NCBI GenBank assembly: GCA_022646745.1 | Contig: CP060262.1 | Location: 1,470,001-1,502,000 of the forward strand | Length of the DNA: 32,000 nt | Direction: 5' to 3' | DNA from: Planctomycetales bacterium | GTDB taxonomy: Bacteria > 4484-113 > JAFGCY01 | Part shown: one piece after another, positions 1-29,672 of the stretch | Layout: every line of letters begins with the position of its first letter | Position numbering within the stretch: position 1 is the stretch's first letter | Translations under genes and position numbers: made by a program | The notes under the pieces: generated by a model | Databases searched by the model: none | Told to the model about the DNA's origin: nothing | The model's input: the letters and a program-made list of their open reading frames with translations, nothing else

Positions 1-984
1 AGCTGGGTGGTGATCCCGTTTGGCGTGGCGGCGGTCGACGGGCAGATCATCTACTACATGATCCAGGACCTGAACGTCGGCCTGCTTCTGATCATCGCCG
101 ACTTCGCGATGTTCCTCGTGGCCGTGATCATGTCCGGCTACGCCTCCAACAACAAATATGCACTGGTCGGCGCAATGCGCGAGGCCGCCATGCTGCTGAC
201 CTACGAGATCCCGATGCTGATGAGCCTCCTGTGCGTTGCCATCTTCGCCGGTTCGCTGAACCTGACGGAGATCGTGCAGCGCCAGACGATGACCTGGGGC
301 ATCCTGCCGCTGTTCCCGGCCTTCATCATCTACTTCGTCGTCAGCCTGGCTGAGACCAACCGCCCGCCGTTTGACCTGCCGGAAGCGCAGAACGAGCTTT
401 TGGGAGGTTACCTCGTGGAGTACAGCGGGATGCGCTTCGCGCTGTTCTACGTCGCCGAGTATTCGAACGTGTTCATCGTCAGCGCGATCATGACCGTCTG
501 CTTCTTCGGCGGCTGGAAGGGCCCGATGTTCCTCGGCCCCGACGGGCTGTGGCTGACGAGCCTGTTCTGGTTCCTGCTGAAGACCTATGCCGTGTGCTTC
601 TTCTTCATCTGGGCGCGTTCCACGATGCCGCGCATCCGCGTGGACCAGATCATGTTCTTCTCCTGGAAGTTCCTGCTGCCGGCCAGCGTGGTCGTGATGG
701 CGGCCACGGCGCTCGGCGTCGTCAACCGCCATCCCTGGTTCAGCGCGAACCAGATCGCAGTGTCAGACGTTGACGTGACCGCTCTGCAGCGCGTCACCCA
801 GTTCCAGACATTGACAACGGCCGAGGCACTGGCGGTGATGACAGTCCCCGAGAAGGCCTTCTTCTGGGGCTACAACGTGCTGTGCCTGTTCTTCGGACTG
901 TTCATCCTGATGATGGCCTGGCGCATCCTGTTCGTGGCGCGCCGCCATCCGCAGCCCCGCCGGGAGGTGAGCTGGACCGGATGA
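1..984 (+). CDS. nuoH: NADH-quinone oxidoreductase subunit H (NuoH/Nqo8), 5' end truncated by the window edge. It has a ~85-aa C-terminal extension containing one extra predicted TM helix.
   Basis: The NuoH signature LAETNRPPFDLPEAQNELLGGYLVEYSGMRFALFYVAEY is present, followed by PRIRVDQIMFFSWKFLLP near the canonical C-terminus. The frame is open from base 1. Stop is TGA 982-984. After about nt 724 the protein continues with a hydrophilic linker and the hydrophobic stretch FFWGYNVLCLFFGLFILMMAWRILFV. Confidence 0.93.
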   Translation, partial: SWVVIPFGVAAVDGQIIYYMIQDLNVGLLLIIADFAMFLVAVIMSGYASNNKYALVGAMREAAMLLTYEIPMLMSLLCVAIFAGSLNLTEIVQRQTMTWGILPLFPAFIIYFVVSLAETNRPPFDLPEAQNELLGGYLVEYSGMRFALFYVAEYSNVFIVSAIMTVCFFGGWKGPMFLGPDGLWLTSLFWFLLKTYAVCFFFIWARSTMPRIRVDQIMFFSWKFLLPASVVVMAATALGVVNRHPWFSANQIAVSDVDVTALQRVTQFQTLTTAEALAVMTVPEKAFFWGYNVLCLFFGLFILMMAWRILFVARRHPQPRREVSWTG

Positions 985-1451
985 GGATGCTGTCAACGAG
1001 CCAGAACCTGCTGCACATCCTCGGTGAGCTGCTGCTCGTGGCCGCCGGGGCCTGGGGCCTGTACCTGCGCATCGTGCTCGGCATCGCGCCGGTGCTGACG
1101 ACGCAGTGGTTCGGTCCGCTGGCCCTGCTGGCGATCGGCCTGCTGCTGGCCGTGCTGCCGCTCACCCCGGCCCGCAATGCGGCCTGGATCAACCCCTGGT
1201 TCAGGCAGCGTCCGGGAGTCGCTTCACTGCTGTGGAGCTTCGCGGCCTGCGGCTGCCTGTATTCGCTGTGGCTGCAGTACGAGCTGCAGTTCACACTCAG
1301 GCCAGTGCTGCTCTTGGCGCCAGGCTTCCTTTACTGGTTCGTGGTGACGGCGCCGGGGCACCATGCCCAGCTGCGCAACATTGCCGCAGCCGGGGCGCAG
1401 GAGGCAGTTGCCAGCGAAGGACAGTCGGTGGAGGAGGTGCAGCGTGCCTGA
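981..1451 (+). CDS. Hypothetical polytopic membrane protein (~156 aa, ~4 predicted TM helices) inside the nuo operon.
   Basis: ATG 981 overlaps the nuoH stop (ATGA). A GGGAGGTGA Shine-Dalgarno lies ~10 nt upstream. GC3 codon bias is strong, like the flanking nuo genes. Hydrophobic segments include LLHILGELLLVAAGAWGLYLRIVLGIAPVL, LALLAIGLLLAVLPL, LLWSFAACGCLYSLWL and VLLLAPGFLYWFVV. I recognise no family motif. Confidence 0.7.
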   Translation: MRMLSTSQNLLHILGELLLVAAGAWGLYLRIVLGIAPVLTTQWFGPLALLAIGLLLAVLPLTPARNAAWINPWFRQRPGVASLLWSFAACGCLYSLWLQYELQFTLRPVLLLAPGFLYWFVVTAPGHHAQLRNIAAAGAQEAVASEGQSVEEVQRA

Positions 1452-2439
1452 CGGGCATGACCTGACAATCCACCATCCGCTGCCGAAGCGCTGGTTCGGC
1501 TACACCGCGATGGACTGGTTCAAGTTCTACGGCTTCATCGCCGTGTCCTGGTTCACGCTGGTGTTCGTCTACACGAAGTACGGCGCACTGTTTGATGACT
1601 ATGCCTCCAAGCAGCCCACCGAGCAGTACTCGCTGATGTGGTTCACCGCCAGCGGCCTGCTGCTGGCCCTGCCTGCGATCCTCGGCTTCTTCTGGTGGGC
1701 CTCCGGCGCGCTTGTGAAGTACAGCCGCTGGATGCTGCGCGACTTCACACTCTGGCGCCTGCTGCTGTTCGTGATCATCCTGTTCTTCTTCATCGTCGAG
1801 TTTGACCCGCTGGACCGGATCCACCCGAAGATGAGCGTGAAGGGCATCGCCGACACGCCGAACCTGACGCTGCTGCTGAGCGGCGAGGGCTTCGCGATCT
1901 GGCGCGAGACCGGCAGCCTCCCGGTGTTCAAGTTCCAGCTCGGCTATTTCCTGCTCTGGGCGCTGTTCTGGTTCCTGGTGTTCGTGCTCAACCTGAGTTA
2001 CCTGGCAACGGGATTCAGCCAGTTCTGGTTCTTCAGCAACCGCGTGCACCGCTACGGCACTTCAGTGCTGACGGGCTTCCGCGAAACCGCCCGGCTGGCG
2101 ACGAACGAGCCCTTCACCGAGGACTACCCGCGCAGCCGGCCGAAGCTGCCCGCGGCCTACCGCGGCGTGCCGCTGCTGAACGTTGATTCACTGAGCGAGG
2201 AGGAGGCCCTGCGCATCATCGCCGCCGATGGCAGCGGTGCGATCGCGCAGGCTCCCGGGCAGCCGACGGTGCTGTTCGTGGACCTCGGACGCTATGACCA
2301 TGACCCGGCGCTTGGCGAACTGAAGCGCGCGGACGGCACCGCGCTCGTCGTGTTCGAGGAGCGCTGGGCGATGCCGGTTGCCAATCGCGAGGCACTGGTG
2401 CTGCCGCTCAGGCGGCCACGCGGGGAGGTGCGGGACTGA
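1444..2439 (+). CDS. Hypothetical membrane protein (~331 aa) in the nuo operon, with an N-terminal ~4-5 TM region and a ~120-aa hydrophilic C-terminal domain. It has no Cys-rich Fe-S motifs.
   Basis: GTG 1444 is in frame with track ORF 1363..2439, is preceded by GGAGGAGGTG and overlaps the orfA stop (GTGCCTGA). An alternative start is ATG 1510. Its stop TGA 2437-2439 overlaps the nuoJ ATG. Hydrophobic segments include FKFYGFIAVSWFTLVFVY, LMWFTASGLLLALPAILGFFWW, LWRLLLFVIILFFFIV and LGYFLLWALFWFLVFVLNL. Confidence 0.7.
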   Translation: MPDGHDLTIHHPLPKRWFGYTAMDWFKFYGFIAVSWFTLVFVYTKYGALFDDYASKQPTEQYSLMWFTASGLLLALPAILGFFWWASGALVKYSRWMLRDFTLWRLLLFVIILFFFIVEFDPLDRIHPKMSVKGIADTPNLTLLLSGEGFAIWRETGSLPVFKFQLGYFLLWALFWFLVFVLNLSYLATGFSQFWFFSNRVHRYGTSVLTGFRETARLATNEPFTEDYPRSRPKLPAAYRGVPLLNVDSLSEEEALRIIAADGSGAIAQAPGQPTVLFVDLGRYDHDPALGELKRADGTALVVFEERWAMPVANREALVLPLRRPRGEVRD

Positions 2440-3485
2440 TGGAAACCAGCCTGCCCGCCGGACTGCTGCTGCTGCGCAACGTGGCCCTGCTGGCCGCGCT
2501 GCTGGCCGCCGCCGGCCTGCTCGTCAGCCGGCTGGACGGCATCTTCCGCCAGCTGCTGGCAACGGCCGGGATCGCCGTGCTCATCGCACTGCTGGCCGCC
2601 CCGCTGGCGGCTATCGGCGGCAAGCTCAGCTGGGCGGAAGCCTGGCAGCTGGACGCGCGCATCCTGGTGACGGCCAGCATGCTCGCCGGCTTCTACCTGC
2701 TTAACCTGCTGCTGTTCAACCGCCTGCCGGCGGAAGCGGGCCTGCTGCGAACATCTGCCAGCGCATGCCTGGCCGTATTCGTGATCAGCTCCCTGCTGTT
2801 CCAGCCGCTGGTTGTCAACCTGTCCAACATGCTGATCATCGGGCTGGTCGGCGGCACGATCGCCTGCGTGCAGCTTTCGCTGCACCGCTTCCATGACCAC
2901 CGGCGCCTGCTGGCAATCCTCGCGGTCGTCGGCTTCATCGCCTTCTTCTGGGGCATGCTGGCACTCAGCGTACCGGCGCTCAGGCTGCTGAATTTCTTCT
3001 TCTGGCTGTTCACCGCAGGCGTTGTCGGCGGCGGAATCGGCTGTGTGACGATGCGCAATGTGTTCCACAGTGCGCTGATGCTGATCCTCTCGCTGTTCGG
3101 CGTGGCCGGCTACTTCATCCTGCTCAACGCTGAATTCCTCGCGATGGTGCAGGTGATCATCTACATCGGCGGCATCATGGTGCTGTTCCTGTTCGGCATC
3201 ATGGTCAGCCAGAACATCATCGGCACCGAACTGAAGCAGAACACTGACCTGAGCCCCTGGGCAGCGCTCTTGTGCACGATGCTGTTCGGCTTCATGGCAC
3301 TCGTCGGGATGTTCATGCAGTTCCCGCAGAACACCGAGTTCCCGCCCAGCGCGGCCGTGCTGACAAGCAATACCCAGGCCATCGGCTGGTCGCTGATGGC
3401 AACGTACACACTTCCCTTCGAAGTGGCCAGCGTGCTCCTGCTCATGGCGATGCTCGGCGCGATCATCCTGGTGAGGAAGGACTGA
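2439..3485 (+). CDS. nuoJ: NADH-quinone oxidoreductase subunit J (NuoJ/Nqo10) with a ~185-aa polytopic N-terminal extension.
   Basis: The C-terminal ~160 aa are canonical NuoJ: NVFHSALMLILSLFGVAGYFILLNAEFLAMVQVIIYIGGIMVLFLFGIMV ... LPFEVASVLLLMAMLGAIIL. The preceding ~185 aa are Leu/Ala-rich with ~5-6 hydrophobic segments. A GGGGAGGTG SD lies upstream, and ATG 2439 overlaps the upstream stop. Confidence 0.88.
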   Translation: METSLPAGLLLLRNVALLAALLAAAGLLVSRLDGIFRQLLATAGIAVLIALLAAPLAAIGGKLSWAEAWQLDARILVTASMLAGFYLLNLLLFNRLPAEAGLLRTSASACLAVFVISSLLFQPLVVNLSNMLIIGLVGGTIACVQLSLHRFHDHRRLLAILAVVGFIAFFWGMLALSVPALRLLNFFFWLFTAGVVGGGIGCVTMRNVFHSALMLILSLFGVAGYFILLNAEFLAMVQVIIYIGGIMVLFLFGIMVSQNIIGTELKQNTDLSPWAALLCTMLFGFMALVGMFMQFPQNTEFPPSAAVLTSNTQAIGWSLMATYTLPFEVASVLLLMAMLGAIILVRKD

Positions 3486-3970
3486 TGTTACTGCTGCTGC
3501 TGCAACAGTCCGAGGGTGGCTCGCTGGCGAGCGAGGGCCTGGCGCCGATCATCCAGGCGATCGAGTTCGCCTCGCGCCAGTGGTTCGCCTCCAGCGGAGA
3601 CACCCCGATGGTGTGGTTCACCAACGTGGACTACCACCAGTACTTCGTGCTCAGCGCGTTCATCTTCTGCCTTGGGCTGTACGGCGTGATCGCGCGGCGC
3701 AATGCGATCGGGATGCTGCTGGCGCTGGAGCTGATGCTGAACGCCGTCAACATCAACATGAGCGCGTTCAACTTCTACTACGGACCGAAATCCACCCTGG
3801 CCTCGTTCACCGCGGAGGAATCCGTGATGACGAACATGGGCCAGGTATTCTCGATATTCACGATCATCGTTGCCGCGGCCGAGGCCGCGGTCGGACTGGC
3901 GATCATCATCGCCTTCTACCGCATGAAGAAGAGCATCATGCTTGATGATGCCAACCTGATGAAGGACTGA
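3485..3970 (+). CDS. nuoK: NADH-quinone oxidoreductase subunit K (NuoK/Nqo11) with a ~45-aa N-terminal extension and a short loop insertion.
   Basis: ATG 3485 overlaps the nuoJ stop (TGATG) and is preceded by GAGGAAGG. NuoK core motifs are present, with both conserved membrane Glu residues: GMLLALELMLNAVNI and IIVAAAEAAVGLAIIIAFYR. The track ORF 3272..3970 shares this frame, but its first 71 codons overlap nuoJ. Confidence 0.88.
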   Translation: MLLLLLQQSEGGSLASEGLAPIIQAIEFASRQWFASSGDTPMVWFTNVDYHQYFVLSAFIFCLGLYGVIARRNAIGMLLALELMLNAVNINMSAFNFYYGPKSTLASFTAEESVMTNMGQVFSIFTIIVAAAEAAVGLAIIIAFYRMKKSIMLDDANLMKD

Positions 3971-4005
3971 CGACTTGCAGATGACGACGACACAGCAGGA
4001 GGTGG

Positions 4006-6168
4006 GTGGTGCCTGAGATGCAGGGACTGCTGCCGCTGATTGCGCTTCTGCCGCTGCTGGCGGCGGGTGCGGGCCTGCTCATGCGCCGTGTGCCGGCCGT
4101 CGTCACTGCCCTACTCGGCGTGCTGTCGCTTGTGGCCAGCGCCGGGATGGCGCTCGCCGTCAACTCAACGCTGGATGCGGAGACCGGCCGCGCGGTCTGG
4201 CTGGTCAACTGGATCAGCGGCTACACCACGGAGATCCGCGCCTTCCCGCCGATCCCGCTGGCCCTGCGCGCGGACTACACCCAGGTGCTGTTCATCCTGA
4301 CTACCTGTCTGATCGGCGTGGCGGTGCTGCTGTATGCGATACGCGAGCGGCGCGCTGACCCGAAGGCCGCGCAGTTCCATGCACTGCTGACATTCTTCTG
4401 TGGCTCAATGCTTTTATTCCTCGTCAGCGACACTTTGATCCTGCTGTACATCGCCTGGGAAATGATGGGCCTCGCCGGCTACCTGCTGATCCGCCACAAG
4501 GGCACGCCGGAGGCCAACCGCGCCGCGCGCCAGGCATTCTGGACGACGCGCGCCACGGACTTCGGCCTGCTGTTCGCGATCTTCATCTTCATGTTCGGCT
4601 TCGGCCGCTTCGGTGTGCACATGGTGCAGCTCAGCCAGGTCAGCATCGGCTGGGTGGCGCAGCATGTGCCGGACCAGCTGTCCGCCGTGAACTGGATGAT
4701 CGTGGCCGGACTATTGGTGCTGCTGGCCGTGCTCGGCAAGGCAGCGCTCCTGCCGCTGTCATTCTGGCTGCCGGATGCGATGGTCGCCCCGGCGCCGGTC
4801 AGTGCGCTCTTGCACAGTGCCACGCTTGTAGCTGCCGGACCGCTGCTGGCCAGCGACCTGCTGTTCGGGCGCACCGTCGTACCGGTACAGGCGGACAGTG
4901 GCAACCCCGGCTGGTACGTGGCTCCGCTCGCATTGGCGGTGATGCTCGGCGGGCTGACGATGCTCGTGGGCTCGATCGTGGCCTGCTGCCAGAAGCAGCC
5001 GAAGAAGCTGCTGGCCTGGAGCACGGTCAGCCAGCTCGGCCTGTGCGTGATGGGCAGCGGAGCATTGGCAATGGAGGCCGCCCGCTTCCAGCTGCTGGCA
5101 CATGCCTGGTTCAAGGCCGCTCTGTTCCTTGCGGTCGGCATCGTGGTGGCCCGCTGGCATGAGGCACAGGCAACACATACTGACGACGAACCAAGCTTTG
5201 ACGACCTGAAGCAGTCCCCGGCCAGCGGCCAGCTGTTCTGGCTGGCCCTGTTACCGGCCGCACTGAGCCTGGCAGGTGTGATCGGGCTGGCGGGCTACTT
5301 CGGTAAGGACCAGATACTGTCAGCGCTGCTGTCACGCGCCGGGCAGGACTACGGTGGCAACGCACTGGCAACCACGATGCCCGCCATGCCGGGCTACTGG
5401 CAGGCCGGGGCACTGCTGCTGATCGCATCGATTCCCTTTACCGCAGCCTACTGTGCGCGCCTGCTGAGCGGGCTGATGCCTTCCCCCGGCAAGGAAGCTG
5501 CCAATGGCCTGGCGGAGCAGCAGTCCGCAGGCAATGGCTGGGCCGGACCGACTGTGATCTCCATCCTGCTGGCGCTGCTTGGCAGCATCGGCATCGCCGC
5601 CTTCTGGCCGTCCTACCGCGCCTACTTCGAGGGCCGGCTGCATGACCTGGCCTGGGCTGGCAACTTCGAACCGCTGGCCGCCGGCCTCTCGGTCGTGCTG
5701 GTGCTGGCCGGCGCAGTGCTTGGATTCATCTCCGCCTCGGAGCGCGGGCTGGCCAGCCCGACTCCATTGCTGACTAGCGTGACCGGATTCTTCCGCGAGG
5801 GGCTTTACTTGAAGCTCTTCTTCACCGGTCTCGTCGGTGGCTTCGGCGAGTTCCTCGCCATCCTGGCAGGCATTTCAGACATTCGCCTGATCGACTGGCT
5901 GTCAACGCGCATCGGGCGTGGTGGCCGCGGGCTGGCCAACGCCAGCGCCTGGCTGGACCTGCATTTCGTCGACGGCATCCGCTGGTGGTGCTGCGAGATC
6001 TGGTGGATCATCAAGCGGCTGCACGGCCGCTACTGGCAGAACGGGCAGATCCAGAACTACATGTTCGTGCTGCTGCTGGGTGCCGTGCTGATGTGCATCG
6101 TCGTCTCCTTCCCGCTCAACGAGACACTGCGGCGCATCATTCAGAGCTTCCTCGGGAGGTACGAGTAG
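4006..6168 (+). CDS. nuoL: NADH-quinone oxidoreductase subunit L (NuoL/Nqo12), an antiporter-like subunit with a C-terminal lateral-helix region.
   Basis: Motifs: YIAWEMMGLAGYLLI, LGKAALLPLSFWLPDAMVAPAPVSALLHSATLVAAG, HAWFKAALFLAVG and YFGKDQIL. The C-terminal region reads DGIRWW...QNGQIQNYMFVLLLGAVLM. AGGAGG lies upstream of GTG 4006. An alternative start is ATG 4018. Confidence 0.93.
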   Translation: MVPEMQGLLPLIALLPLLAAGAGLLMRRVPAVVTALLGVLSLVASAGMALAVNSTLDAETGRAVWLVNWISGYTTEIRAFPPIPLALRADYTQVLFILTTCLIGVAVLLYAIRERRADPKAAQFHALLTFFCGSMLLFLVSDTLILLYIAWEMMGLAGYLLIRHKGTPEANRAARQAFWTTRATDFGLLFAIFIFMFGFGRFGVHMVQLSQVSIGWVAQHVPDQLSAVNWMIVAGLLVLLAVLGKAALLPLSFWLPDAMVAPAPVSALLHSATLVAAGPLLASDLLFGRTVVPVQADSGNPGWYVAPLALAVMLGGLTMLVGSIVACCQKQPKKLLAWSTVSQLGLCVMGSGALAMEAARFQLLAHAWFKAALFLAVGIVVARWHEAQATHTDDEPSFDDLKQSPASGQLFWLALLPAALSLAGVIGLAGYFGKDQILSALLSRAGQDYGGNALATTMPAMPGYWQAGALLLIASIPFTAAYCARLLSGLMPSPGKEAANGLAEQQSAGNGWAGPTVISILLALLGSIGIAAFWPSYRAYFEGRLHDLAWAGNFEPLAAGLSVVLVLAGAVLGFISASERGLASPTPLLTSVTGFFREGLYLKLFFTGLVGGFGEFLAILAGISDIRLIDWLSTRIGRGGRGLANASAWLDLHFVDGIRWWCCEIWWIIKRLHGRYWQNGQIQNYMFVLLLGAVLMCIVVSFPLNETLRRIIQSFLGRYE

Positions 6169-7869
6169 TTGGACCAGACGCAGAGTTTCATAGGCTTCAT
6201 CTCGTGGATCAGCAACCCCATCACCCAGATGATGCTGGCCCCGCTGGTCGGCTGCCTGCTGGTCTGCCTGATCCCGAAGAAGAAGATCCTGCCAATCAAG
6301 ATCGTGGCCCTCGTGTTCTCGCTGCTCAGCCTGCTGTTTGCGGTGCTGCTGCTGACCGGGATGCCTGAAGGCGCCACCAGCTGGCGGCCCTACGCCGGAT
6401 ACACGGATACCTCGCAGAATGTGCAGGACCTGAAGCCGCTCGGGCAGTACACGCCCTTCCAGGCTGAGTTCCCCGGCTTCCAGTACCGTCAGGACATCGA
6501 GTGGATGGCGATCAAGATCGGCGAGAGCCGCAGCTTCAGCGTGCACTACGACGTCGGCATCGACGGCCTGTCACTGCCACTGGTGCTGATGACCTGTGCG
6601 CTGTTGCCACTGATCATCATCTGGGGCTGGTACCGCACGGAGCGGGTGAAGGAATTCCTCGCGCTGACCCTGTTCATGCAGGTCGGCCTGATCGGTTCCT
6701 TCGTCGCTCTGGACTTCGTACTGCTCTACCTGTTCTGGGAATGGATGCTGATCCCGATGTACGTGCTGATCGGCGGCTGGGGCAAGGACCGCGAGAAGGC
6801 GGCGCGCGCCGCGATCCGCTTCTTCGTCTACACGATGGCCGGCTCCGTGTTCATGCTGATGTCGCTCATCATCTGCAAGGTGATCAGCGCCGGCGTGTAC
6901 AGCTTCCAGATCCCGAACCTGGCAACCTTCCTGCTGAACGAGGGCTACACCGACGTCGTGCCCTGGCTGAGGATGTGGATCTTCCTTGGCTTCCTTGTGG
7001 CCTTCGCCGTCAAGGCACCGCTGTTCCCGCTGCACACATGGCTGCCGCCGGCCCATACCCAGGCCCCGGCCGAGATGTCAGTGATCCTTGCGGCGGTGAT
7101 GCTCAAGAGCGGGACATACGCCTTCCTGCGCGTGCTGTACTGGGCGCTGCCGGACCAGGGCTATGCAATCGGCCCGGTGGTTGCCACGCTGGCGGTCGTC
7201 GGCATAGTCTGGGGCGCGGCGGTCACGCTGGTGCAGACCGACATCAAGCGCATGATCGCCTACAGCTCGATCAGCCACATGGGCTTCATCATCCTCGGCT
7301 GCAGCGCCATGAATCCGCTGGCAACGACCGGCGCAATCTACCACATGGTGGGCCACGGCGTGATCATCACCACGCTGTTCTTGCTGGCGGACAGCATCGA
7401 GCGGCGTTACGGCACGCGCAATGTGCATGAGATCGCAGGGCTCGGATCAGCGGCCCCGCTGCTGGCGGGCATGCTTTCACTGGCGGCCTTCGCCGGCATG
7501 GGCTTCCCCGCGCTGGCCGGCTTCTGGGGTGAGCTGTACAGCCTGATGGGCGCGTTCGAGAACGGGCCGGGCTGGCAGACTGTGCTGGTTGGCAGCATCG
7601 ACGGCAGCCTGCTCCTGCAGATCCTCGCCGCGGTGGCGGTGATCGGCGTGCTGACAAGCGCGGTGTACATGATCAGCCTGCTGCAGCGCACCCTGCCCGG
7701 TGATGCGCCGGAGTCGGCAAAGGGCCACGTGCCGCTGCGCGAGGCCATCGTGCTGTTGCCACTCGGGGTAGCGATCATCTTCCTCGGCGTCTACCCGAAC
7801 TGGCTGATGCATATGTCAGCGGGCTATTCGGCGATGCTGGATTCGATCCACTCCGCCGGGATCTACTGA
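6169..7869 (+). CDS. nuoM: NADH-quinone oxidoreductase subunit M (NuoM/Nqo13), an antiporter-like subunit.
   Basis: Motifs: LYLFWEWMLIPMYVLIGGWG, FAVKAPLFPLHTWLPPAHTQAPAEMSVILAAVMLKSGTYAFLR and AGFWGE. TTG 6169 directly follows the nuoL stop, with GGGAGGT ~9 nt upstream. An alternative start is ATG 6229. Stop is TGA 7867-7869. Confidence 0.92.
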   Translation: MDQTQSFIGFISWISNPITQMMLAPLVGCLLVCLIPKKKILPIKIVALVFSLLSLLFAVLLLTGMPEGATSWRPYAGYTDTSQNVQDLKPLGQYTPFQAEFPGFQYRQDIEWMAIKIGESRSFSVHYDVGIDGLSLPLVLMTCALLPLIIIWGWYRTERVKEFLALTLFMQVGLIGSFVALDFVLLYLFWEWMLIPMYVLIGGWGKDREKAARAAIRFFVYTMAGSVFMLMSLIICKVISAGVYSFQIPNLATFLLNEGYTDVVPWLRMWIFLGFLVAFAVKAPLFPLHTWLPPAHTQAPAEMSVILAAVMLKSGTYAFLRVLYWALPDQGYAIGPVVATLAVVGIVWGAAVTLVQTDIKRMIAYSSISHMGFIILGCSAMNPLATTGAIYHMVGHGVIITTLFLLADSIERRYGTRNVHEIAGLGSAAPLLAGMLSLAAFAGMGFPALAGFWGELYSLMGAFENGPGWQTVLVGSIDGSLLLQILAAVAVIGVLTSAVYMISLLQRTLPGDAPESAKGHVPLREAIVLLPLGVAIIFLGVYPNWLMHMSAGYSAMLDSIHSAGIY

Positions 7870-8528
7870 TCCGCCTGCGCTGATTCCGCTGCGGGCTTCT
7901 TCTTCCCGCTGCCGACGCGGCTTTCCGTGCCGTCGAGGATGCGGCGGATGTTGCTGCGGTGCGTCCAGACCACGAGCAGGGCCACCGGGATGCCAAACGC
8001 CATATAGGGCCTGAGCGCCGGCACCGCCACTGCGAGGATGCCCACGCTCAGTGCCGCGAGGATGCTGCCGACACTCACCATGCGTGTTGTTGCCAGCGCG
8101 AGCAGGAACACGCCGAGCGGCGCCAGCACCCATAGCTGGTAGAGCGCGATCAGCACGCCGAGGCTGGTGGCGACGCCCTTGCCGCCCCTGAACTTCAGCC
8201 AGGGGGTGAAGGTATGCCCAAGGATCGCGGCCAGGCCGGTGATCAGCAGCAGCCAGGCGCGGCCGCTGATGGTCAGCCCCGGCGGGTTGACCGTGTCCAT
8301 CAGGCGCCCAGCGAGTAAAACGGGCAGCAGGCCCTTGGCCACGTCCAGCAGCAGCACGGTGAGGCCAGCCTTCCAGCCCATCACGCGCCAGACATTGGTC
8401 ATGCCGATGTTGCCGCTGCCATGTTTGCGGATGTCCATGCCCCCAAGCCGCGCAACGAGCCAGCCGAAGGGCAGGGATCCGCTCAGGAACCCGGCGAGCG
8501 CCAGCACTGTCAAGTAATATAGGGGCAC
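7863..8528 (-). CDS. plsY: Glycerol-3-phosphate acyltransferase PlsY.
   Basis: Motifs: GSGNIGMTNVWR, GHTFTPWLKFRGGKGVATSLG and WTHRSNIRRILDGTE. I place the start at GTG 8528, at the onset of the PlsY-like sequence (VPLYYLTVLALAGF). The longer track ORF, running to 8705, overlaps the PP2C gene and is Ala/Ser/Gly-rich. A TATACT hexamer lies 6 nt upstream of this GTG. Confidence 0.88.
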   Translation of the reverse strand: MPLYYLTVLALAGFLSGSLPFGWLVARLGGMDIRKHGSGNIGMTNVWRVMGWKAGLTVLLLDVAKGLLPVLLAGRLMDTVNPPGLTISGRAWLLLITGLAAILGHTFTPWLKFRGGKGVATSLGVLIALYQLWVLAPLGVFLLALATTRMVSVGSILAALSVGILAVAVPALRPYMAFGIPVALLVVWTHRSNIRRILDGTESRVGSGKKKPAAESAQADQ

Positions 8529-8534
8529 GCGGGA

Positions 8535-8542
8535 AGTATACT
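8535..8542. promoter_or_regulatory. Palindromic AGTATACT giving a TATACT -10-like hexamer on both strands between divergent plsY and the PP2C gene.
   Basis: On the minus strand, TATACT is followed by 6 nt and then the plsY GTG 8528. On the plus strand, TATACT (8537-8542) lies upstream of the PP2C ATGs at 8575 and 8581, with GGAG at 8568-8571. Confidence 0.4.
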
Positions 8543-8574
8543 CCGTGTGGCTGGCCGCTTGCGGCCCGGAGCAG

Positions 8575-10176
8575 ATGCAGATGTCTTGGAACCCGTTCAG
8601 GCGCAGGGATGATGAGGAGCCGGCCCAGGAGCCCGCTGCACATGATGCCGCGGCTGCCGCTCCGTCCATGCCTGCCGATGACGACCCGACTGACCCGCTG
8701 ATCAATGTCGCAAGCTACCGCGAGGAAAGCGAGACCATCCAGCGCTGGGACGGCATGCGCCTCGATCGCGTCAGCATCGGGGCCGGGGACGGCGCTGGTG
8801 GATTCCTCAAGCTGGTTCTGGAGCAGGGCGGGGCGGTCGCAGACGCATTGCCGGGAATCCTGCTGGAAGGCGGTGCACTGTTCGGCCTGCGCGACCTGCT
8901 GGCTGACGACAGGTCCGTACTCAGCGCAGCGATTGAGCCGGTGGATGTCAGTTTCCGCGAATTCTCCGCGGGCATCGAGTCCGGCCAGTTGCGCGTCCGC
9001 GTACTGGACATCCTCGTTGCGATGCATGACCTGGCGACCGGCTTCGCACGCTGCGAAGCAGGTGGGCTCGGCTGGCGACTCAATGCCGACGCACTGGGTT
9101 TCTGCCGCAGGCTGGACACTGCACCGGCAGGCTGGCAACTGCGCTTCTCGGGCTTCGGCGAACTGCAGCCGGGTGAGCCGGCTGATGCATCGGAGATCGT
9201 CACCCTGCTCCGGCCGCTGGTTGACAGTTTGCTGTCAGAACCGAAACTGCTGCCCGCCGGAAGCATCGCCACTGGACTGGACAGGCTGCTGGACGGCCTG
9301 CAGAACAATGACGGCCTGAGCCTCAGCAAGCTGGCAACGGAGATCCAGCGCAGCCTGCACCAGCTGCAGCTTGCCGGACATGCCACCACTGACAACGGCA
9401 TGCGCCGCCAGCACAACGAGGACGCCTGGCTGATGCTGGAGATGCGCCAGCACAGTGCGATCGGCAGTTCACTGTGCATTGCCGCGGTGGCGGACGGGAT
9501 GGGCGGGCATGAAAGCGGCGAGATCGCCAGTTCGCTCGCGCTGTCCATGCTGCGCCAGCAGCTGCAGACCGCCCTGACGGCTCCCAGCACCCGGCCGCAG
9601 GACACCGGTGTGCTGGCAATGCAGCTGGCAACGATCATCCCCGGCATCAACCGCGCGCTGATCGAGCGCTCGGCGATCGACCAGGCACTGACCGGCATGG
9701 GCACCACGCTGTGCGGCTTCGCGATGCTCGGCTCCGGCAGCACGCTCAGCAGCGACACGGCTGCGGGCTCAGCGGTGTTCAATGTCGGTGACAGCCGCTG
9801 CTACCTGGTCACGGCACGGTCACTGATACGGATCACCCGCGACCACAGCTTCGTGCAGGAACTGGTTGACAACGGTAGTGTAGACCCGGATGAGGCCTTC
9901 GACCATCCGCGCAAGAACGTGATCACACGCTGCCTCGGTGGCGACGGGCTGGAGATCCAGGCGGACATCTACAGCTTCCGGCCCGGGCCCTGCGAACGCC
10001 TGCTGGTCTGCAGCGATGGCCTGAGTGATGCGCTGCGTGACAGTGAGATCTCCGCCGTGCTGGCCGCCAATGCCCAAGCCGGCCTGGCGGTCACCGCCCA
10101 GGCACTGGTGGATGCCGCCAATGCGGCTGGCGGGCCTGACAACATCACGGTGCTGCTGCTGGACTGCCGGCTCTAG
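8575..10176 (+). CDS. PP2C-family Ser/Thr protein phosphatase with a ~270-aa N-terminal domain of unknown function.
   Basis: The C-terminal half carries PP2C/Stp motifs: NEDAWLM, VADGMGGHESGEIAS, GMGTTLCG, FNVGDSRCYLV, ITRDHSFVQELV, VITRCLG, LLVCSDGLSDAL and GGPDNITVLLLD. The start is ambiguous among GTG 8545, ATG 8575 and ATG 8581. GGAG at 8568-8571 favours 8575 or 8581. Confidence 0.88.
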   Translation: MQMSWNPFRRRDDEEPAQEPAAHDAAAAAPSMPADDDPTDPLINVASYREESETIQRWDGMRLDRVSIGAGDGAGGFLKLVLEQGGAVADALPGILLEGGALFGLRDLLADDRSVLSAAIEPVDVSFREFSAGIESGQLRVRVLDILVAMHDLATGFARCEAGGLGWRLNADALGFCRRLDTAPAGWQLRFSGFGELQPGEPADASEIVTLLRPLVDSLLSEPKLLPAGSIATGLDRLLDGLQNNDGLSLSKLATEIQRSLHQLQLAGHATTDNGMRRQHNEDAWLMLEMRQHSAIGSSLCIAAVADGMGGHESGEIASSLALSMLRQQLQTALTAPSTRPQDTGVLAMQLATIIPGINRALIERSAIDQALTGMGTTLCGFAMLGSGSTLSSDTAAGSAVFNVGDSRCYLVTARSLIRITRDHSFVQELVDNGSVDPDEAFDHPRKNVITRCLGGDGLEIQADIYSFRPGPCERLLVCSDGLSDALRDSEISAVLAANAQAGLAVTAQALVDAANAAGGPDNITVLLLDCRL

Positions 10177-11840
10177 CTGGCGAACACCGCGATCCGCGCA
10201 GCCGAGGGGTCGCTGACATAGAGGTAGCCCGTGGCCGGGTCATAGGCCAGGCCGGTCGGGCCCTGTGCCCCGAACTCCACATTCAGCTGGCCGTCACTGC
10301 CGAACTGGAAGCTGTACTCGCCGCTGCTGTCAAACACGCTTACGCGTCCCAGCGATGGCTCGCTGACGAACAGGCGGCCGGTCACATCAGCCACAACATC
10401 CCATGGCGCAGTGAGTGTTCCGTTGCCAGCAGGGCGGGCCAGTTCAGCGGAAGCCGCGAATTCATTGTCGAGCAGCAGCACACGGTCATTGCCAGTATCG
10501 GCCAGCGCCATGCTGCCATCGGGCAGCAGCAGCAGGCCGGATGGCCCGGACAGCACCAGCTGTGCATCAAGCGGGTCCAGCGGGCTGTCAAGGTAGACGC
10601 CGAGCGGGGTGAAGGTCGAAAGCAGGTTGCGTCCGCCGTCCAGCGCCACGATCCGCTCACCGTCGCAGCAGATGCCGCTGAGCAGCCCGAATTCACCGGG
10701 GCCGCTGCCAGCGGAGCCGAACTTGGAGCGGAACTGCAGTGCGCTGTTCAGGCGGAACACCTGGCTGTAGCCATTGTCACAGAGGTACACTTCGCCAGTG
10801 CCGGGGTCGATTGCCAGCGCAGCCGGCTCACGCATTGCGGCACTGCCCAGTTTGTCAATCCGGTGCAGCAGGCGGCCGTCCTCGTCGAAGGCCAGCAGGG
10901 CCGGATCAGCTTCGTCGCAGACCAGCAGGCGCCGGTTCTCAGCATCAAACAGCAGGCTGCCCGGTGCATCAAGTTGCGGGCTCGTGATCTGGCGCAGCAG
11001 GTCGAAGTCCACCGCCTGGCTGGCCAGCACTGCTGACAACCCACTCTCGATGCCGTTGTCACGCAGGGCAGTGACAGCATACTCGTATGACCCAGCAGCC
11101 GGCAGGATGTCCGTATGGCTGCCGGCCTGCAGCAGTTCCTCATTGAGCTTGCTGAAGGAATCCTCTCCAGCCGCACGGCGGTACAGGTTGAAGCCCGTTG
11201 CACCTGACACGCTGTCCCATTCGAGGCGGCGCAACTGTGTGGAAGCGGCGCTCAGCCGGGGTGCCGGAGGTGCCGCCAGCGGGTACTCCACCGGCAGCGG
11301 GCTATACAGCGCATAGCGCCCGAAGTTAGTGATGCTGAAGGAGAGGGACAGGCCATCCTCCGCCAGGCTGGCGGACAGGCCGGCCTGTTCGTAGCGCTGG
11401 CTGGACTCATTCCAGGACTGCACATCGAGGGGTGTTGCCAGTGGCCAGGCACTGGACAGCAATAGTTCGATCTCAATGCTGCCATCCAGTTCGACAGGGA
11501 TGAACCGGCCCTGCACGGCTGAGGTCGTGGCATTGCCGTCATCCGGAGTTGCCACCGGCGGGGCGGGCATGCTGCCGCTGATCTCGAAGGAGATTGCCAG
11601 GCTGCGGCCCTCCACTCCCGGCAGGCCGCGGTCACCTTCGCTGCGGTCGCGCAGCGCGATCTCGACATCGTCAGCCAGGGTGCCAGGCTGGATGATCGCC
11701 GTGATCCGTCCACCGTCACTCTCAAGCCTGGTGACGGTCTGCTCCTGCGGGCTGAATTGCACATAGCGTGCGCCGCCACCGCAGGCAGCCAGCACAGATG
11801 CCAGGGCCGCCAGCGCGGCCCACAGGCTCAATCCCCTCAT
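10173..11840 (-). CDS. Lipoprotein with a central fibronectin-III-like domain and a C-terminal NHL-repeat beta-propeller.
   Basis: The signal peptide has a canonical lipobox (LASVLAAC-GGG). The FN3-like segment reads RLEWDSVSGATGFNLYRR...YEYAVTALRDNG. There are repeated NHL-like blades (VYLCDNGYSQVFRL, LFVSEPSLGRVSVFDSSG, LYVSDPSAARIAVF). A GGAGGG SD lies immediately after the fliL stop, 6 nt before ATG 11840. Confidence 0.8.
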   Translation of the reverse strand: MRGLSLWAALAALASVLAACGGGARYVQFSPQEQTVTRLESDGGRITAIIQPGTLADDVEIALRDRSEGDRGLPGVEGRSLAISFEISGSMPAPPVATPDDGNATTSAVQGRFIPVELDGSIEIELLLSSAWPLATPLDVQSWNESSQRYEQAGLSASLAEDGLSLSFSITNFGRYALYSPLPVEYPLAAPPAPRLSAASTQLRRLEWDSVSGATGFNLYRRAAGEDSFSKLNEELLQAGSHTDILPAAGSYEYAVTALRDNGIESGLSAVLASQAVDFDLLRQITSPQLDAPGSLLFDAENRRLLVCDEADPALLAFDEDGRLLHRIDKLGSAAMREPAALAIDPGTGEVYLCDNGYSQVFRLNSALQFRSKFGSAGSGPGEFGLLSGICCDGERIVALDGGRNLLSTFTPLGVYLDSPLDPLDAQLVLSGPSGLLLLPDGSMALADTGNDRVLLLDNEFAASAELARPAGNGTLTAPWDVVADVTGRLFVSEPSLGRVSVFDSSGEYSFQFGSDGQLNVEFGAQGPTGLAYDPATGYLYVSDPSAARIAVFAS

Positions 11841-11851
11841 CGCAGGCCCTC

Positions 11852-12757
11852 CTATGAACTGACGATGTTGGGCAGCAGCACCTCGGTCACGCGGCCGTAC
11901 TGCTCGCCGATGATGTCATTGATCTTGATGCGGATGTTGTCCTTGAACAGGTCCTTGCCGCTCGGGCGGATGAAGTCGTCGGACACCGTGCGGGCGATCT
12001 CGTCGATGATCATGTCGCGGATGCGCGACTCATTCTCCATCAGGCGGATCTCCATGATCGAGCGCGGCTTCTCGGGCAGCTCAGGCATCTCCGGCGGCGG
12101 GGCTTCCTTCGGGGCGCCGTGCATCGCAGGCACGACCTCCACCCCGTCCGTGCTGCCGCCGGCAGCGTTGACGACCTCCGTGGCTCCGTCAGCCGGCGCA
12201 GTGTGCTCCTCCAGGCCTTCCTCCGGTGGCAGCGAGGCATGTCCGCCCTTGCCTCCGTCCTTCGGGTTGCCTTCCTCGTCAAGCCCGAGCTGGTAGTTGC
12301 GGTAGAGCTGCACGCCGCTGTCGTACTTCTCCATCATCGCCTCGTAGACCTCCCACTCGTGGCGGTCATACAGGCTGTCAACCTCGAGGATCACGTTCAT
12401 CTGAACGAACTCATTGTCAGCGGTGTTCGTCTTGAACTCGCCGAGCTCGTACAGCACGCCCTCTGCCGGGACCACGAAGTTGTCAGGGGAGTCGCCATGC
12501 TCAGCATGCCCGTCGTCGGCATGCGCCGCGTCCTCCTCGCCCGGCACGGCCAGGGTGCCGCTGTCCTCGAGCTTCGACTTCAGCCCGTTGAGCTGCATGA
12601 ACAGCAGGGCGCTGAATGCGATGGCCGCCACCGCGACCGCCAGCGAGGCTATCATCATCAGCGGTGGCTTCCCGCCGCCACCGGCGGCCTTGCGGACCTT
12701 CTTCGCAGGCTTGCCCTCCTGCACCTCATCAACATCAATTGCCTGATTGTCAGCCAT
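11852..12757 (-). CDS. fliL: Flagellar basal-body-associated protein FliL, with a long acidic/Gly/Pro-rich internal insertion.
   Basis: The topology is a short basic N-terminus plus a single TM (PPLMMIASLAVAVAAIAFSALLF). FliL-like blocks are VLYELGEFKTNT, FVQMNVILEV and ESRIRDMIIDEI...LFKDNIRIKINDIIG...VTEVLLPNIV. It is adjacent to motAB. A GAGAGGG SD lies upstream of ATG 12757. Confidence 0.75.
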   Translation of the reverse strand: MADNQAIDVDEVQEGKPAKKVRKAAGGGGKPPLMMIASLAVAVAAIAFSALLFMQLNGLKSKLEDSGTLAVPGEEDAAHADDGHAEHGDSPDNFVVPAEGVLYELGEFKTNTADNEFVQMNVILEVDSLYDRHEWEVYEAMMEKYDSGVQLYRNYQLGLDEEGNPKDGGKGGHASLPPEEGLEEHTAPADGATEVVNAAGGSTDGVEVVPAMHGAPKEAPPPEMPELPEKPRSIMEIRLMENESRIRDMIIDEIARTVSDDFIRPSGKDLFKDNIRIKINDIIGEQYGRVTEVLLPNIVSS

Positions 12758-12825
12758 ACAAAATGCCCTCTCTTCCGGGGTTCAACTCAACAGTATCTAT
12801 AACCTGCAGTTTTCGAACATGTGTC

Positions 12826-13137
12826 CTATTTCGGTCCCGCTTTATAACCGTGGAATTCCTTCAGCGTGTCGTGGTCGAGGATGTACACGCGGTTCTCGCT
12901 CCTGATCCGGTTGCGGTACTTCGGCGTGTTCGGCCAGTACAGTTGCCGGCTGCTGTCAGCAACATAACGGTAGTCGTCAATCGTAGTGTGCCCGGTGCTG
13001 GCAACGTCCATGAAATTCTGGCCAAACCCGGTGCCTTCCCCAGCTGGGCAGCCCCAGGCCAGCAGCGCGACCAGGCAGACCGGCAGCAGCATGATGGCCA
13101 GCCTGAACCAGGTCCTGCCGTACCATGCCTCAGCCAT
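12826..13137 (-). CDS. Small exported protein or possible lipoprotein (~104 aa) of unknown function, between motB and fliL.
   Basis: ATG 13137 lies 1 nt after the motB stop (13139-13141). The N-terminal hydrophobic signal is WFRLAIMLLPVCLVALLAWGC, with a non-canonical lipobox-like LAWGC. The mature part is hydrophilic. The longer track ORF, running to 13224, overlaps motB. Confidence 0.6.
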   Translation of the reverse strand: MAEAWYGRTWFRLAIMLLPVCLVALLAWGCPAGEGTGFGQNFMDVASTGHTTIDDYRYVADSSRQLYWPNTPKYRNRIRSENRVYILDHDTLKEFHGYKAGPK

Positions 13138-13138
13138 C

Positions 13139-14071
13139 TCAGTGCCCCGCCCCCAGCTCGTGCACCGGTATCCCCGGGCTGGGCTGTGGTCCGACAAGCG
13201 GCCCGGACGGCTCCTCCGCGGCATCCACTTCCGGCTCGTTGTAGCCCCGCAGGATCACGATCTCCACCCGGCGGTTCGCGGCCCGGCCGTGCACGCTGTC
13301 ATTGCCCTGCAGCGGATGGGTGTCAGCATAGCCGGCCACACTGACCTTGTCCCGCGGCAGGCCGTTGGCGATCAGGAGCCTGGCAACGCTGGCTGCTCGT
13401 GCGGCGGACAGTTCCCAGTTGCTCGGGTAGCGCGCGCTGGCAATCGGCCGGTCATCCGTGTGGCCCAGCACCTCGACGGAATTCGGCAGGCGGTTCAGTT
13501 CGGCACCCAGTGCGGCCAGCACCTCACGGAAACCGGGCTTCATGTCGGCGCTGCCGCTGTCGAACATCAGCTGGTCGTCAAGGAATGTCAGCACGATTCC
13601 CCGCTCGGTGAAGCGCATGCTGACACGCTCATCGTGGCCGAACTCCTGCATGATCTGCTCACCCTGCTGGCGGGCCTCGTTGTCAAGGATGTCACGCAGC
13701 TTCTCCAGCAGTCCCTCATCCCCGTTCTCGCCCTCCATGATGCGGCGGAAGCGGAAGATCTGGATCGGGGTCTGGTGCTCCGGGAACAGGATCGAGGGCG
13801 ACTCTCCGCCACTGATCGTGCCGATGTCAATCGGTGTCGTACTGGCGTCCTCCCCGATGCTCACCTCGGGATCGAGCGATGTGCTCTTGCGGTTGGCACC
13901 CATGCCGTTCGTCATGCTCTCCGCCAGGGCCTTGAACTTCTCCATCTCGATGTTCGACATCGAGAACAGGATGATGAACACGACGGTGAGCAGCGTGATC
14001 ATGTCTGCATAGCTGATCAGCCAGCGCTCATCGCCGCCTTCATTGCCTTGTGGTGCCTGTGGTATGTACAC
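13139..14071 (-). CDS. motB: Flagellar stator protein MotB (OmpA-like peptidoglycan-binding C-terminus).
   Basis: The N-terminal region WLISYADMITLLTVVFIILF contains the conserved channel Asp. The OmpA-like C-terminus reads VEVLGHTDDRPI...SNWELSAARAASVARLL...VAGYADTHPL...NRRVEIVIL. GTG 14071 is preceded by GAGGAG at 6-nt spacing. Confidence 0.9.
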   Translation of the reverse strand: MYIPQAPQGNEGGDERWLISYADMITLLTVVFIILFSMSNIEMEKFKALAESMTNGMGANRKSTSLDPEVSIGEDASTTPIDIGTISGGESPSILFPEHQTPIQIFRFRRIMEGENGDEGLLEKLRDILDNEARQQGEQIMQEFGHDERVSMRFTERGIVLTFLDDQLMFDSGSADMKPGFREVLAALGAELNRLPNSVEVLGHTDDRPIASARYPSNWELSAARAASVARLLIANGLPRDKVSVAGYADTHPLQGNDSVHGRAANRRVEIVILRGYNEPEVDAAEEPSGPLVGPQPSPGIPVHELGAGH

Positions 14072-14097
14072 GTATCACTCCTCGCGTGCTTTCCCCG

Positions 14098-14898
14098 TCA
14101 GCCTTCCTGCTTGACGTGGGAACGCTCCTTGGGCGGCAGGAATGCCGCCAGCTTCTCCTGCACGATGCGCGGGTTGTCACCGGCCTGGATTGAGAGGATG
14201 CCCTCCACCATGATCTCGCGCACGAGCACCTCCTCCTTGCTGGCGTTCTTCAGCTTGGAGGCCCAGGGCAGGAACAGTGCATTGGCACTGCCCACACCGT
14301 AGAGCGTGGCGATGAAGGCCGCTGCCACCATTGGCCCCAGGGAGCCCGGATCTGACAGGTTTGACAGCACGAGCACGAGGCCCATCACCGTTCCCACGAT
14401 CCCGAAGGTCGGGGTGAAGCCCGCCATAGTCTCAAGGTAGGCCGCGCCGACATGGTGGCGCTCCTCCACGAACTTGATGTCCGTGTGCAGGATGTCCTTC
14501 ACCAGCTCGGTGTCGTTGCCGTCGATCACGAGCTGCAGCCCGTTGCGCAGGAAGGGATCCGTTTCGTTGTTGGCATCCTCCTCCAGCACCAGCAGGCCTT
14601 CGCGGCGCACCTTCTCGGAGAATTCCACGAACTTCTTGATCACCGGGATCGGGTCAACCTTGGGGCGCATGAAGCACTGCATGATCACCTTCCAGAGGTT
14701 GATCGAGGTCGCCAGCGGAAAGGCCACCATTGTCGCCCCGCCGGCCCCGCCGAACACGATGCAGGCAGCGCTGATCGCCATCAGCTGCGTCGGTGTCCCG
14801 CCCTCGATCGAGAAGCCTGCAAACACTCCGCCGAAGCAGATCAGTACTCCTACAAGGCTTGCAATATCCATTGCCGTGAGCCATCCCGTGGATTCCAC
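14098..14898 (-). CDS. motA: Flagellar stator protein MotA.
   Basis: It is a 4-TM protein of MotA length. Motifs: MDIASLVGVLICFGGVFAGF and AAAFIATLYGVGSANALFLPWASKLK. It lies directly upstream of motB. GTG 14898 has GGGAGG 4 nt upstream. An alternative start is ATG 14871. Confidence 0.9.
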   Translation of the reverse strand: MESTGWLTAMDIASLVGVLICFGGVFAGFSIEGGTPTQLMAISAACIVFGGAGGATMVAFPLATSINLWKVIMQCFMRPKVDPIPVIKKFVEFSEKVRREGLLVLEEDANNETDPFLRNGLQLVIDGNDTELVKDILHTDIKFVEERHHVGAAYLETMAGFTPTFGIVGTVMGLVLVLSNLSDPGSLGPMVAAAFIATLYGVGSANALFLPWASKLKNASKEEVLVREIMVEGILSIQAGDNPRIVQEKLAAFLPPKERSHVKQEG

Positions 14899-20873: not shown

Positions 20874-20896
20874 TCCACGGGAGCAAGTGACTGGAT

Positions 20897-22393: not shown

Positions 22394-22427
22394 ACGGAAT
22401 TAGCTCCGAGTCCATCCATATTTGAAG

Positions 22428-22453
22428 CGCGGACGGGTGTCCGCGGGTAGAAT
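22428..22453 (+). promoter_or_regulatory. GC hairpin CGCGGAC-GGGT-GTCCGCG (22428-22445) followed by GGTAGAATC (-10-like TAGAAT at 22448-22453), upstream of the deacetylase gene.
   Basis: Read directly from the sequence. There is no U-tract after the hairpin. The same GGTAGAATC 9-mer occurs at 17759-17767, upstream of the receiver gene. Confidence 0.35.
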
Positions 22454-22471
22454 CTCCAGCCGACAACGCCT

Positions 22472-29669: not shown

Positions 29670-29672
29670 GGC

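Follow-up and report, generated by a model that had tools for sequence, protein, structure and literature searches.

A complex I-related operon lacking all iron-sulfur and quinone ligands in uncultured bacteria

The window analysed here, a stretch of 32,000 nucleotides (nt) from the genome of a Planctomycetales bacterium (GenBank assembly GCA_022646745.1, contig CP060262.1, positions 1,470,001 to 1,502,000), opens with seven genes that make up the distal part of an operon of eleven, nuoA-B-C-D-H-orfA-nuoI*-J-K-L-M, whose product derives from complex I of the 11-subunit type. The cytoplasmic subunits encoded by this operon had no iron-sulfur (Fe-S) or quinone ligand left, while the ion path of the membrane arm was fully conserved, and all eleven genes are under purifying selection. 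Judged from these sequence features, the complex would, on balance, be a redox-independent ion translocator resembling the Mrp antiporters.

Operon layout and its recurrence in related genomes

Seven tightly packed genes, identified with Pfam and NCBIfam, occupied positions 1-7869 of the plus strand and were followed by a convergent gene (lengths in amino acids, aa):

1..984, plus strand: nuoH, 3' part (325 codons), cut at the window start; Pfam NADHdh, E 2.8e-78
981..1451, plus strand: orfA, 156 aa, four predicted membrane helices; no Pfam or NCBIfam match
1444..2439, plus strand: orfB (nuoI*), 331 aa, zero cysteines; no Pfam or NCBIfam match, NuoI by profile and fold
2439..3485, plus strand: nuoJ, 348 aa; Pfam Oxidored_q3, E 3.4e-38, at aa 199-344
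3485..3970, plus strand: nuoK, 161 aa; Pfam Oxidored_q2, E 8.2e-25
4009..6168, plus strand: nuoL, 719 aa; NCBIfam NuoL, E 7.5e-75
6169..7869, plus strand: nuoM, 566 aa, the operon's second and final antiporter-like subunit; TIGR01972
7863..8705, minus strand: plsY, convergent, 3' boundary of the operon; Pfam G3P_acyltransf, E 7.3e-53

The nuoH/orfA junction was an ATGA, the overlaps at the orfA/orfB, orfB/nuoJ and nuoJ/nuoK junctions amounted to 8, 1 and 1 nt, respectively, and nuoL and nuoM were directly adjacent. The product of nuoM scored 450 bits against TIGR01972 (NDH_I_M, cut-off 263.8) versus 143 bits against the NuoN model TIGR01770. Its stop codon (TGA, 7867-7869) and the stop of plsY on the minus strand (7863-7865), both read directly, placed the two genes in a 7-nt tail-to-tail overlap. 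The gene order ending against plsY, as proposed in the initial annotation of this DNA, was confirmed. The genes 3' of the operon in two related loci, L006 and L007, were different from those of the window. Scanning of positions 1-9000 for promoters and terminators gave no signal beyond chance.

The upstream half of the operon was recovered from a metagenome contig (L001) found by an exact-protein look-up with NuoJ: its last 5832 bases were identical to positions 1-5832 of the window, and it added 6.5 kb on the 5' side, completing the operon start. The order on this contig was nuoA, nuoB, an insert of about 1.9 kb, nuoC, nuoD and a nuoH of 591 codons (L001:5704-7479), which starts 792 nt (1776-984) upstream of the window and runs into it. 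A canonical nuoI and nuoN immediately upstream, which would have refuted the initial annotation, were not there: besides nuoA to nuoD and the 5' part of nuoH, the 6.5 kb contained no nuoE, nuoF or nuoG, no separate nuoI and no nuoN. The insert, which parts nuoA-nuoB from nuoC-nuoM, was variable and present in the closest relatives only (L001:2131-3987, L008:1923-6025, L010:856-6004). In L001 it included an unknown open reading frame (ORF; 2150/2405-2947, no Pfam match) and, on the other strand, a TfoX_N-like gene (3439-3804), while in L008-L010 it was 4-5 kb long with other ORFs. In the more distant L006, L007 and L012-L015 the gap between nuoB and nuoC measured a few hundred bases at most.

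The order A-B-C-D-H-orfA-orfB-J-K-L-M, including the H-orfA-orfB-J arrangement whose conservation had been marked for checking, recurred in L006-L013 amid unrelated flanks, L009 and L011 being cut loci in which the operon was visible only in part. L014 and L015 had the same eleven-gene layout minus a detectable orfA. These loci, reaching down to 44% orfB identity, belonged to contigs and metagenome-assembled genomes labelled UBP7 HKST-UBA01/03, bacterium AC1.30, Zod_Metabat.1143, SJ870 and uncultured Planctomycetales, and the whole family formed about 48 clusters at 90% identity, every one from uncultured bacteria. Activated sludge and sediment were among the sampled habitats of the contigs. 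A search for conserved accessory genes beyond the operon found no flanking gene common to different sub-clades, and the operon is a self-contained unit.

All eleven genes are subject to purifying selection. The ratio of non-synonymous to synonymous substitution rates (dN/dS) against the closest relative, L008, ranged from 0 to 0.19 over the eleven genes (nuoB 0, orfB 0.07, nuoD 0.11, orfA 0.19) and did not exceed 0.59 against L009 and L010; nuoB and nuoD were among the most constrained genes and orfA was the least constrained one (0.19-0.59). This bears directly on the possibility, listed in the initial annotation as one that would refute it, that the copy is a paralogue of a canonical nuo operon which is decaying into a pseudogene. 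The loss of catalytic residues and of nuoN, as well as the insertions between nuoB and nuoC, could be taken as signs of decay, but the idea is already contradicted and hardly credible: the eleven ORFs were intact in at least 10 genomes spanning 44-98% orfB identity, dN/dS stayed far below 1, the replacement residues were fixed and the coupling residues invariant. The copy is not decaying.

Redox ligands of the cytoplasmic stub and their fate in sister operons

Alignment of NuoB with Nqo6 of Thermus thermophilus revealed that GLACCAIE had been replaced by GLDYATLE, GACASSGG by GAGAISGA and PGCPPRPE by PGDPPRPE, with D, Y, G and D taking the places of the four cysteines of cluster N2 and no cysteine remaining in the protein. 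The loss of the N2 cysteines was seen in all 9 locus copies compared. A search with NuoB among 5.8 billion proteins separated two groups: the 48 closest clusters each lacked at least two N2 cysteines, and the next 72 all had the CCCC set, and the two of these that were checked (P0096 and P0109) were located in ordinary 14-gene nuo operons. One cluster of the cofactor-free family, P0084 (on a 503-bp contig), keeps the CC pair, while its third and fourth N2 ligands are replaced by Gly and Asp, respectively, and may be an evolutionary intermediate.

NuoD aligned best with mitochondrial 49-kDa subunits (E 5.5e-83). Its QHPAAHGVLR segment reads QHPSLPSPLE and its RLDYVS segment RCEWLA, whereby the quinone-ligating His and Tyr are gone (the head-group ligands His38 and Tyr87 in T. 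thermophilus numbering). These replacements were invariant in 8-9 family members, while His and Tyr were intact in L016, L019 and L020. The protein also carries fixed extra His residues (SGHRWHHGW, family pattern SGHR[WH]H..) that flank the canonical His within the G-A-R-M-H segment, a residue which neighbours cluster N2 in canonical enzymes. The genes for NuoB and NuoD both lie outside the window; with the losses in their products, the complex cannot be a redox-driven complex I.

A further component of the stub, the product of orfB, is homologous to NuoI but begins with a membrane domain of four helices and has lost all eight Fe-S cysteines. A profile of its C-terminal domain gave eight weak matches in the PDB; five of these belonged to NuoI, NdhI or 23-kDa chains, and in each of the five the alignment fell on the N-terminal NuoI motif '..P.T..YP..K..LP..FRG'. 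The AlphaFold2 (AF2) model, with a predicted local distance difference test score (pLDDT) of 80.7, showed four long helices and, after them, an alpha/beta domain, and its top five Foldseek matches (7zm7_I, 8iuf_S8, 5lc5_I, 7tgh_S8 and 6u8y_N) were all NuoI homologues, with a best E of 1.5e-3 and a probability of 1.00-0.97 for the first four. An exhaustive profile search of 1.84 billion representatives returned 27 proteins only; five of these (P0171, P0175, P0176, P0177 and P0182; E 4e-24 to 1e-12) combined the same membrane domain with a NuoI bearing both CxxCxxCxxxCP motifs, and P0180 was intermediate. In the orfB alignment the first motif had become A..I.AAD.SGA and the second was replaced by D..PAL..L...DG; the protein of this genome has 0 Cys, no Fer4 match in Pfam and neither of the motifs for clusters N6a and N6b. 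The statement of the initial annotation that no ferredoxin-type nuoI stands between nuoH and nuoJ was right as to the missing Fer4 domain, but the slot does hold a nuoI, degenerate and free of cysteines, placed after one extra gene. Profile, fold and exhaustive search together ruled out that orfB is a foreign supernumerary subunit, as it had been regarded earlier.

In the stub composed of NuoB, NuoC, NuoD and the membrane-anchored NuoI, all twelve Fe-S cysteine ligands were lost. In complex I there is no electron path to the quinone (Q) site without N6a, N6b and N2. Because these clusters and the quinone ligands are absent, electron transfer is excluded: from the established structure of complex I we strongly infer that the complex is unable to carry electrons or to reduce quinone. 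It is accordingly very improbable that the operon still encodes a respiratory oxidoreductase with supernumerary membrane subunits, relying on unrecognised cofactor sites or on NuoB, NuoI and NuoN encoded in trans. The subunit set and the best PDB matches are indeed those of a bona fide complex I, and the full-length lateral helix described below would suit a NuoN encoded elsewhere; but NuoB and NuoI* of this genome have no cysteine at all, the quinone His and Tyr of NuoD are replaced, no electron path to the Q site remains, and the purifying selection on the operon's own nuoB, nuoD and nuoI* implies that they are used rather than replaced.

The origin of this condition could be traced with two sister operons. 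The operon of P0171 (L016; GCA_900174565.1, FWPU01004758.1, 5808-15933) has the order A-B-C-D-H-I-J-K-L-M with a NuoI fused to transmembrane (TM) helices, a type also represented by the NuoI proteins P0175-P0177 and P0182. It has no nuoN, no orfA and no NuoH insertion after TM1, and it keeps the four NuoB cysteines, both CxxCxxCxxxCP motifs of NuoI and the His and Tyr of NuoD. In common with the family are the NuoI membrane domain, the extended NuoK, the long NuoL and the C-terminal helix of NuoH. The L016 operon also has no nuoEFG. The operon of P0180 (L017) has the layout of L016, with a cysteine-free NuoB bearing other replacements (E, D, G, S), a NuoD in which His is changed to Trp and Tyr to Ile, and a half-degenerate NuoI. 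A neighbour-joining tree of 1069 concatenated columns grouped L016 and L017 with the family, apart from two canonical operons, in 100% of bootstraps, while the branching order of L016 and L017 within the cluster was divided between 57% and 43% of bootstraps. Since L016 retains every ligand and is nevertheless like the family in its TM-fused NuoI, its extended NuoK and its lack of nuoN, the loss of nuoN from the operon and the membrane anchoring of NuoI came first, and the cofactor loss is derived; it may have happened twice, separately in the family and in L017. Searches of open-access PMC and bioRxiv found nothing on a complex I relative without Fe-S clusters, without nuoN or with a membrane-fused NuoI, and nothing on the bioenergetics of UBP7. 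The L016 type, a ligand-intact complex I operon with a membrane-anchored NuoI and no nuoN, itself appears to be undescribed.

Membrane arm and the remainder of the window

The ion-path residues of NuoA, H, J, K, L and M were identical in all ten loci compared, and those of NuoH, NuoL and NuoM could be aligned to solved structures. The invariant positions included FDVD of NuoA; the coupling loop between TM5 and TM6 of NuoH, AETNRPPFDLPEA.NELLGGYLVEYSG, together with R...PRIR.DQ; the TM3 motif IIYIGGIMVLF of NuoJ; and both membrane Glu of NuoK, within LELMLNAVN and AAAEAAVGLA. In NuoL they were the Glu of TM5, Lys of TM7, His of TM8, His/Lys of TM11 and Lys of TM12, and in NuoM the Glu of TM5, Lys of TM7, Lys of TM8, His of TM11 and Glu of TM12. 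The charged motifs quoted in the initial annotation for NuoK, L and M were all found and aligned to solved structures, and no residue that a working arm should have was missing, which agrees with the ion-translocating role predicted there.

Hydropathy indicated additional membrane segments in several subunits: about 13-14 in NuoH versus the canonical 8, four in orfA and about 10 in NuoJ versus 5, besides the four of orfB seen in the AF2 model. In NuoH, where alignment to PDB chains assigned aa 47-87 to TM1 and aa 227-502 to the core, they arise from an insertion of about 140 aa and about four helices right after TM1, a position at which the quinone entrance is framed, and from a C-terminal extension of about 85 aa with one predicted helix. 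The canonical domain of NuoJ covers aa ~186-348; its N-terminal ~185 aa (about 5-6 helices) were present only in this sub-lineage, and NuoJ of L006 and L007 had 227-281 aa. The N-terminal extension of NuoK, about 50 aa long and also present in L006, L007 and L016 (NuoK of 151-169 aa there), was not predicted to be transmembrane. Of the extra helices announced in the initial annotation, those of NuoH, orfA, orfB and NuoJ were hence recovered, while the one in NuoK was not.

The motifs GE..G..WGL and PL.P of orfA were kept in L006, L007 and L009-L013. The gene was absent from the sister operons L016 and L017 and was not detected in L014 and L015. In L014 the orfA slot (9196-10004) was occupied by two small ORFs resembling an MNT-HEPN toxin-antitoxin pair (nucleotidyltransferase/HEPN; motifs read by eye), and in L015 by a different four-helix ORF (9219-10004). 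Pfam and NCBIfam scans, the sole test made, gave no match that would identify orfA as MrpE, MrpF, MrpG or a NuoN fragment.

The AF2 model of NuoL (pLDDT 84.9) contained a lateral helix at 601-675 (75 residues, pLDDT 57-66) and a TM16 anchor at 681-717, and its top 50 Foldseek matches were all NuoL, ND5 or NdhF, including full-length matches to NuoL chains. According to this model, the lateral helix, or 'ruler', has not been shortened although one pump gene is missing from the operon. A nuoN after nuoM was found in none of the 14 operons of the clade, one ligand-intact operon included, and the end of the operon at nuoM that had been noted for this genome is thus general among the 14 examined. 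Nor did a third antiporter-like gene turn up in the operon itself, in up to 10 kb of flanking DNA at each locus or over the 24 kb of the window that lie downstream. The arm is probably a two-pump one. The place of NuoN may be taken by the extra helices; otherwise nuoN would have to be encoded elsewhere in the genome.

Among the scanned window ORFs of at least 180 aa there was no other Proton_antipo_M or Fer4 protein. Downstream of plsY the following features were recognized:

8545-10176, plus strand: 543-aa protein with a PP2C phosphatase domain only at aa ~287-501; N-terminal ~290 aa without family match
10173-11840, minus strand: NHL/beta-propeller protein
11852-12757, minus strand: FliL-like protein
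12986-14302, plus strand: ORF without family match
14098-14898, minus strand: MotA/ExbB-type proton channel
15149-17680, minus strand: 843-aa ORF without Pfam match
18295-23575, plus strand: HEAT-repeat protein, family-2 glycosyltransferase, unknown 498-aa ORF and polysaccharide deacetylase; putative exopolysaccharide locus
28422-30890, minus strand: two tandem MacB/FtsX-type permeases

The cluster at 10173-14898 is another system near the operon that uses the proton-motive force. The G+C content fell to 53% in 17001-18000 and to 54% in 31001-32000, compared with about 62-66% elsewhere in the window.

Relation to known complexes and probable function

Compared with the 11-subunit complex I (NuoABCDHIJKLMN without NuoEFG), the operon encodes homologues of A, B, C, D, H, I, J, K, L and M in canonical order, and the membrane core set A, H, J, K, L, M and N is complete except for N. 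The best PDB matches were true complex I chains (NuoD 5.5e-83, NuoB 5.9e-38, NuoH 2e-62, NuoM 2.6e-72), and all charged residues of the membrane arm and the NuoL lateral helix are kept as well. The differences are the absence of the N2, N6a and N6b cysteines, of the quinone His and Tyr and of nuoN in the operon, and the addition of the NuoI four-helix domain, the NuoH insertion and C-terminal helix, orfA and the extended NuoK. The '2M' complexes of Chadwick et al. (2018) likewise vary the number of NuoL/M/N-type pumps: they reportedly gain a pump and have a lengthened NuoL lateral helix, while here one pump gene is missing and the predicted helix of 75 residues is not shortened.

The nearest described concept is that of the Ehr complexes (related to energy-converting hydrogenases), complex I relatives whose NuoD-like subunit has lost the ancestral catalytic ligands (PMC6349859, PMC4758237). 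These descend from group 4 [NiFe] hydrogenases and are assumed to be redox-active, with Fe-S subunits (PMC6349859), in contrast to the present complex, in which no Fe-S site is left. The hydrogenases lack NuoA and NuoJ (PMC3144371). A membership in the Ehr or hydrogenase-related complexes was ruled out: both NuoA and NuoJ are present here, and the match of NuoD to complex I 49-kDa subunits (E 1e-83) far exceeded those to MbhL (4.7e-44) and HycE (2.3e-31).

Functionally, the kept parts, i.e., the E-channel of NuoA/H/J/K, the NuoH TM5-6 loop, two antiporter-like subunits and the lateral helix, direct attention to the Mrp antiporters (Mnh/Pha/Sha). The latter work independently of redox reactions and are built from MrpA, MrpD and MrpC, homologues of NuoL, NuoM and NuoK with the same Lys/Glu chains; correspondingly, NuoL, M and K of this operon gave secondary NCBIfam matches to the Mrp A, D and C models. 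They lack, in turn, NuoA, H and J and the four-protein cytoplasmic stub, all kept in this complex. In the favored reading of a redox-independent translocator, the eleven proteins would assemble like complex I and the assembly would run on an ion gradient as a secondary transporter, the most plausible reaction being an Mrp-like cation/proton antiport. The cofactor-free Q-module may have been kept as a cap and gate of the E-channel, and the former quinone entrance may be remodelled by the helices gained with the NuoH insertion, orfA and the NuoI membrane domain. Na+/H+ antiport by the deactive mammalian complex I was reported by Roberts and Hirst in 2012.

Several observations weigh against a plain antiporter. 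The proposed activity is suggested solely by which features were kept and which are gone, and the Mrp-specific MrpB, E, F and G are missing among the operon genes, with orfA and orfB having no Pfam match to the MNHE, MrpF or PhaG families. The constraint on NuoB, C and D (dN/dS of NuoD ~0.1) is hard to explain for an antiporter alone and, together with the newly fixed His, Asp and Tyr at the former N2 pocket, hints at a function located in the stub. One possible outcome, which we hold only tentatively, is a complete complex I-like assembly, stub included, whose conformational and ion-translocating engine would be uncoupled from redox chemistry and run on ion gradients alone. The N2 pocket would have been rebuilt as a conserved site of Asp/Tyr/Asp and a His cluster, which would bind a metal or relay protons and carry out or gate a new non-redox function.

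In a related and rather unlikely alternative, the complex might be a conformational machine driven by an ion gradient and serving the remodelled stub. Protons flowing through NuoL/M and the E-channel would there power some process other than redox chemistry, located in the N2 pocket or the former quinone tunnel: a hydrophobic molecule might be bound, released or extracted, or a new His/Asp/Tyr site, possibly with a metal, might be catalytic. It would account for the position of nuoB and nuoD among the most constrained genes, for substitutions which are invariant and not random (D, Y, D in NuoB; SGHR[WH]H.. in NuoD), for the invariant coupling loop of NuoH and for the placement of its four-helix insertion exactly after TM1, at the quinone entrance, where orfA was added too. 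However, no candidate substrate, partner enzyme or conserved neighbour gene was found, and the cofactor-free L017 has no His cluster and other replacements, by which a common new active site is not evident.

It is even less probable that the assembly is a non-catalytic pseudo-complex with a structural or regulatory role (proton-motive force sensor, regulated leak or scaffold) and no vectorial transport of its own. The loss of catalytic ligands with retention of the fold is typical of pseudoenzymes, and neither a partner nor a substrate is evident; but eleven genes make a costly scaffold, and the invariance of the proton-path Glu, Lys and His down to 44% orfB identity would be difficult to explain without ion movement.

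The central outstanding problem of complex I concerns the way in which proton pumps as far off as 200 Å are driven by what happens at the quinone site. In the operon described here the coupling apparatus (NuoH loop, E-channel, two pumps and lateral helix) is maintained by selection with every redox centre removed. If the complex assembles and moves ions, nature would have supplied a minimal system in which coupling can be studied apart from electron transfer; the complex would also be evidence for a structural or gating role of the Q-module independent of redox chemistry, and a living evolutionary bridge from complex I to the Mrp-type antiporters. The operons form an apparently undescribed clade of complex I relatives, in which NuoI is membrane-anchored and nuoN is missing from the operon; one of these operons keeps all cofactor ligands. 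Some of their proteins are labelled by automatic annotation as 'NADH-quinone oxidoreductase subunit B/L', which would wrongly credit these uncultured bacteria with a respiratory complex I.

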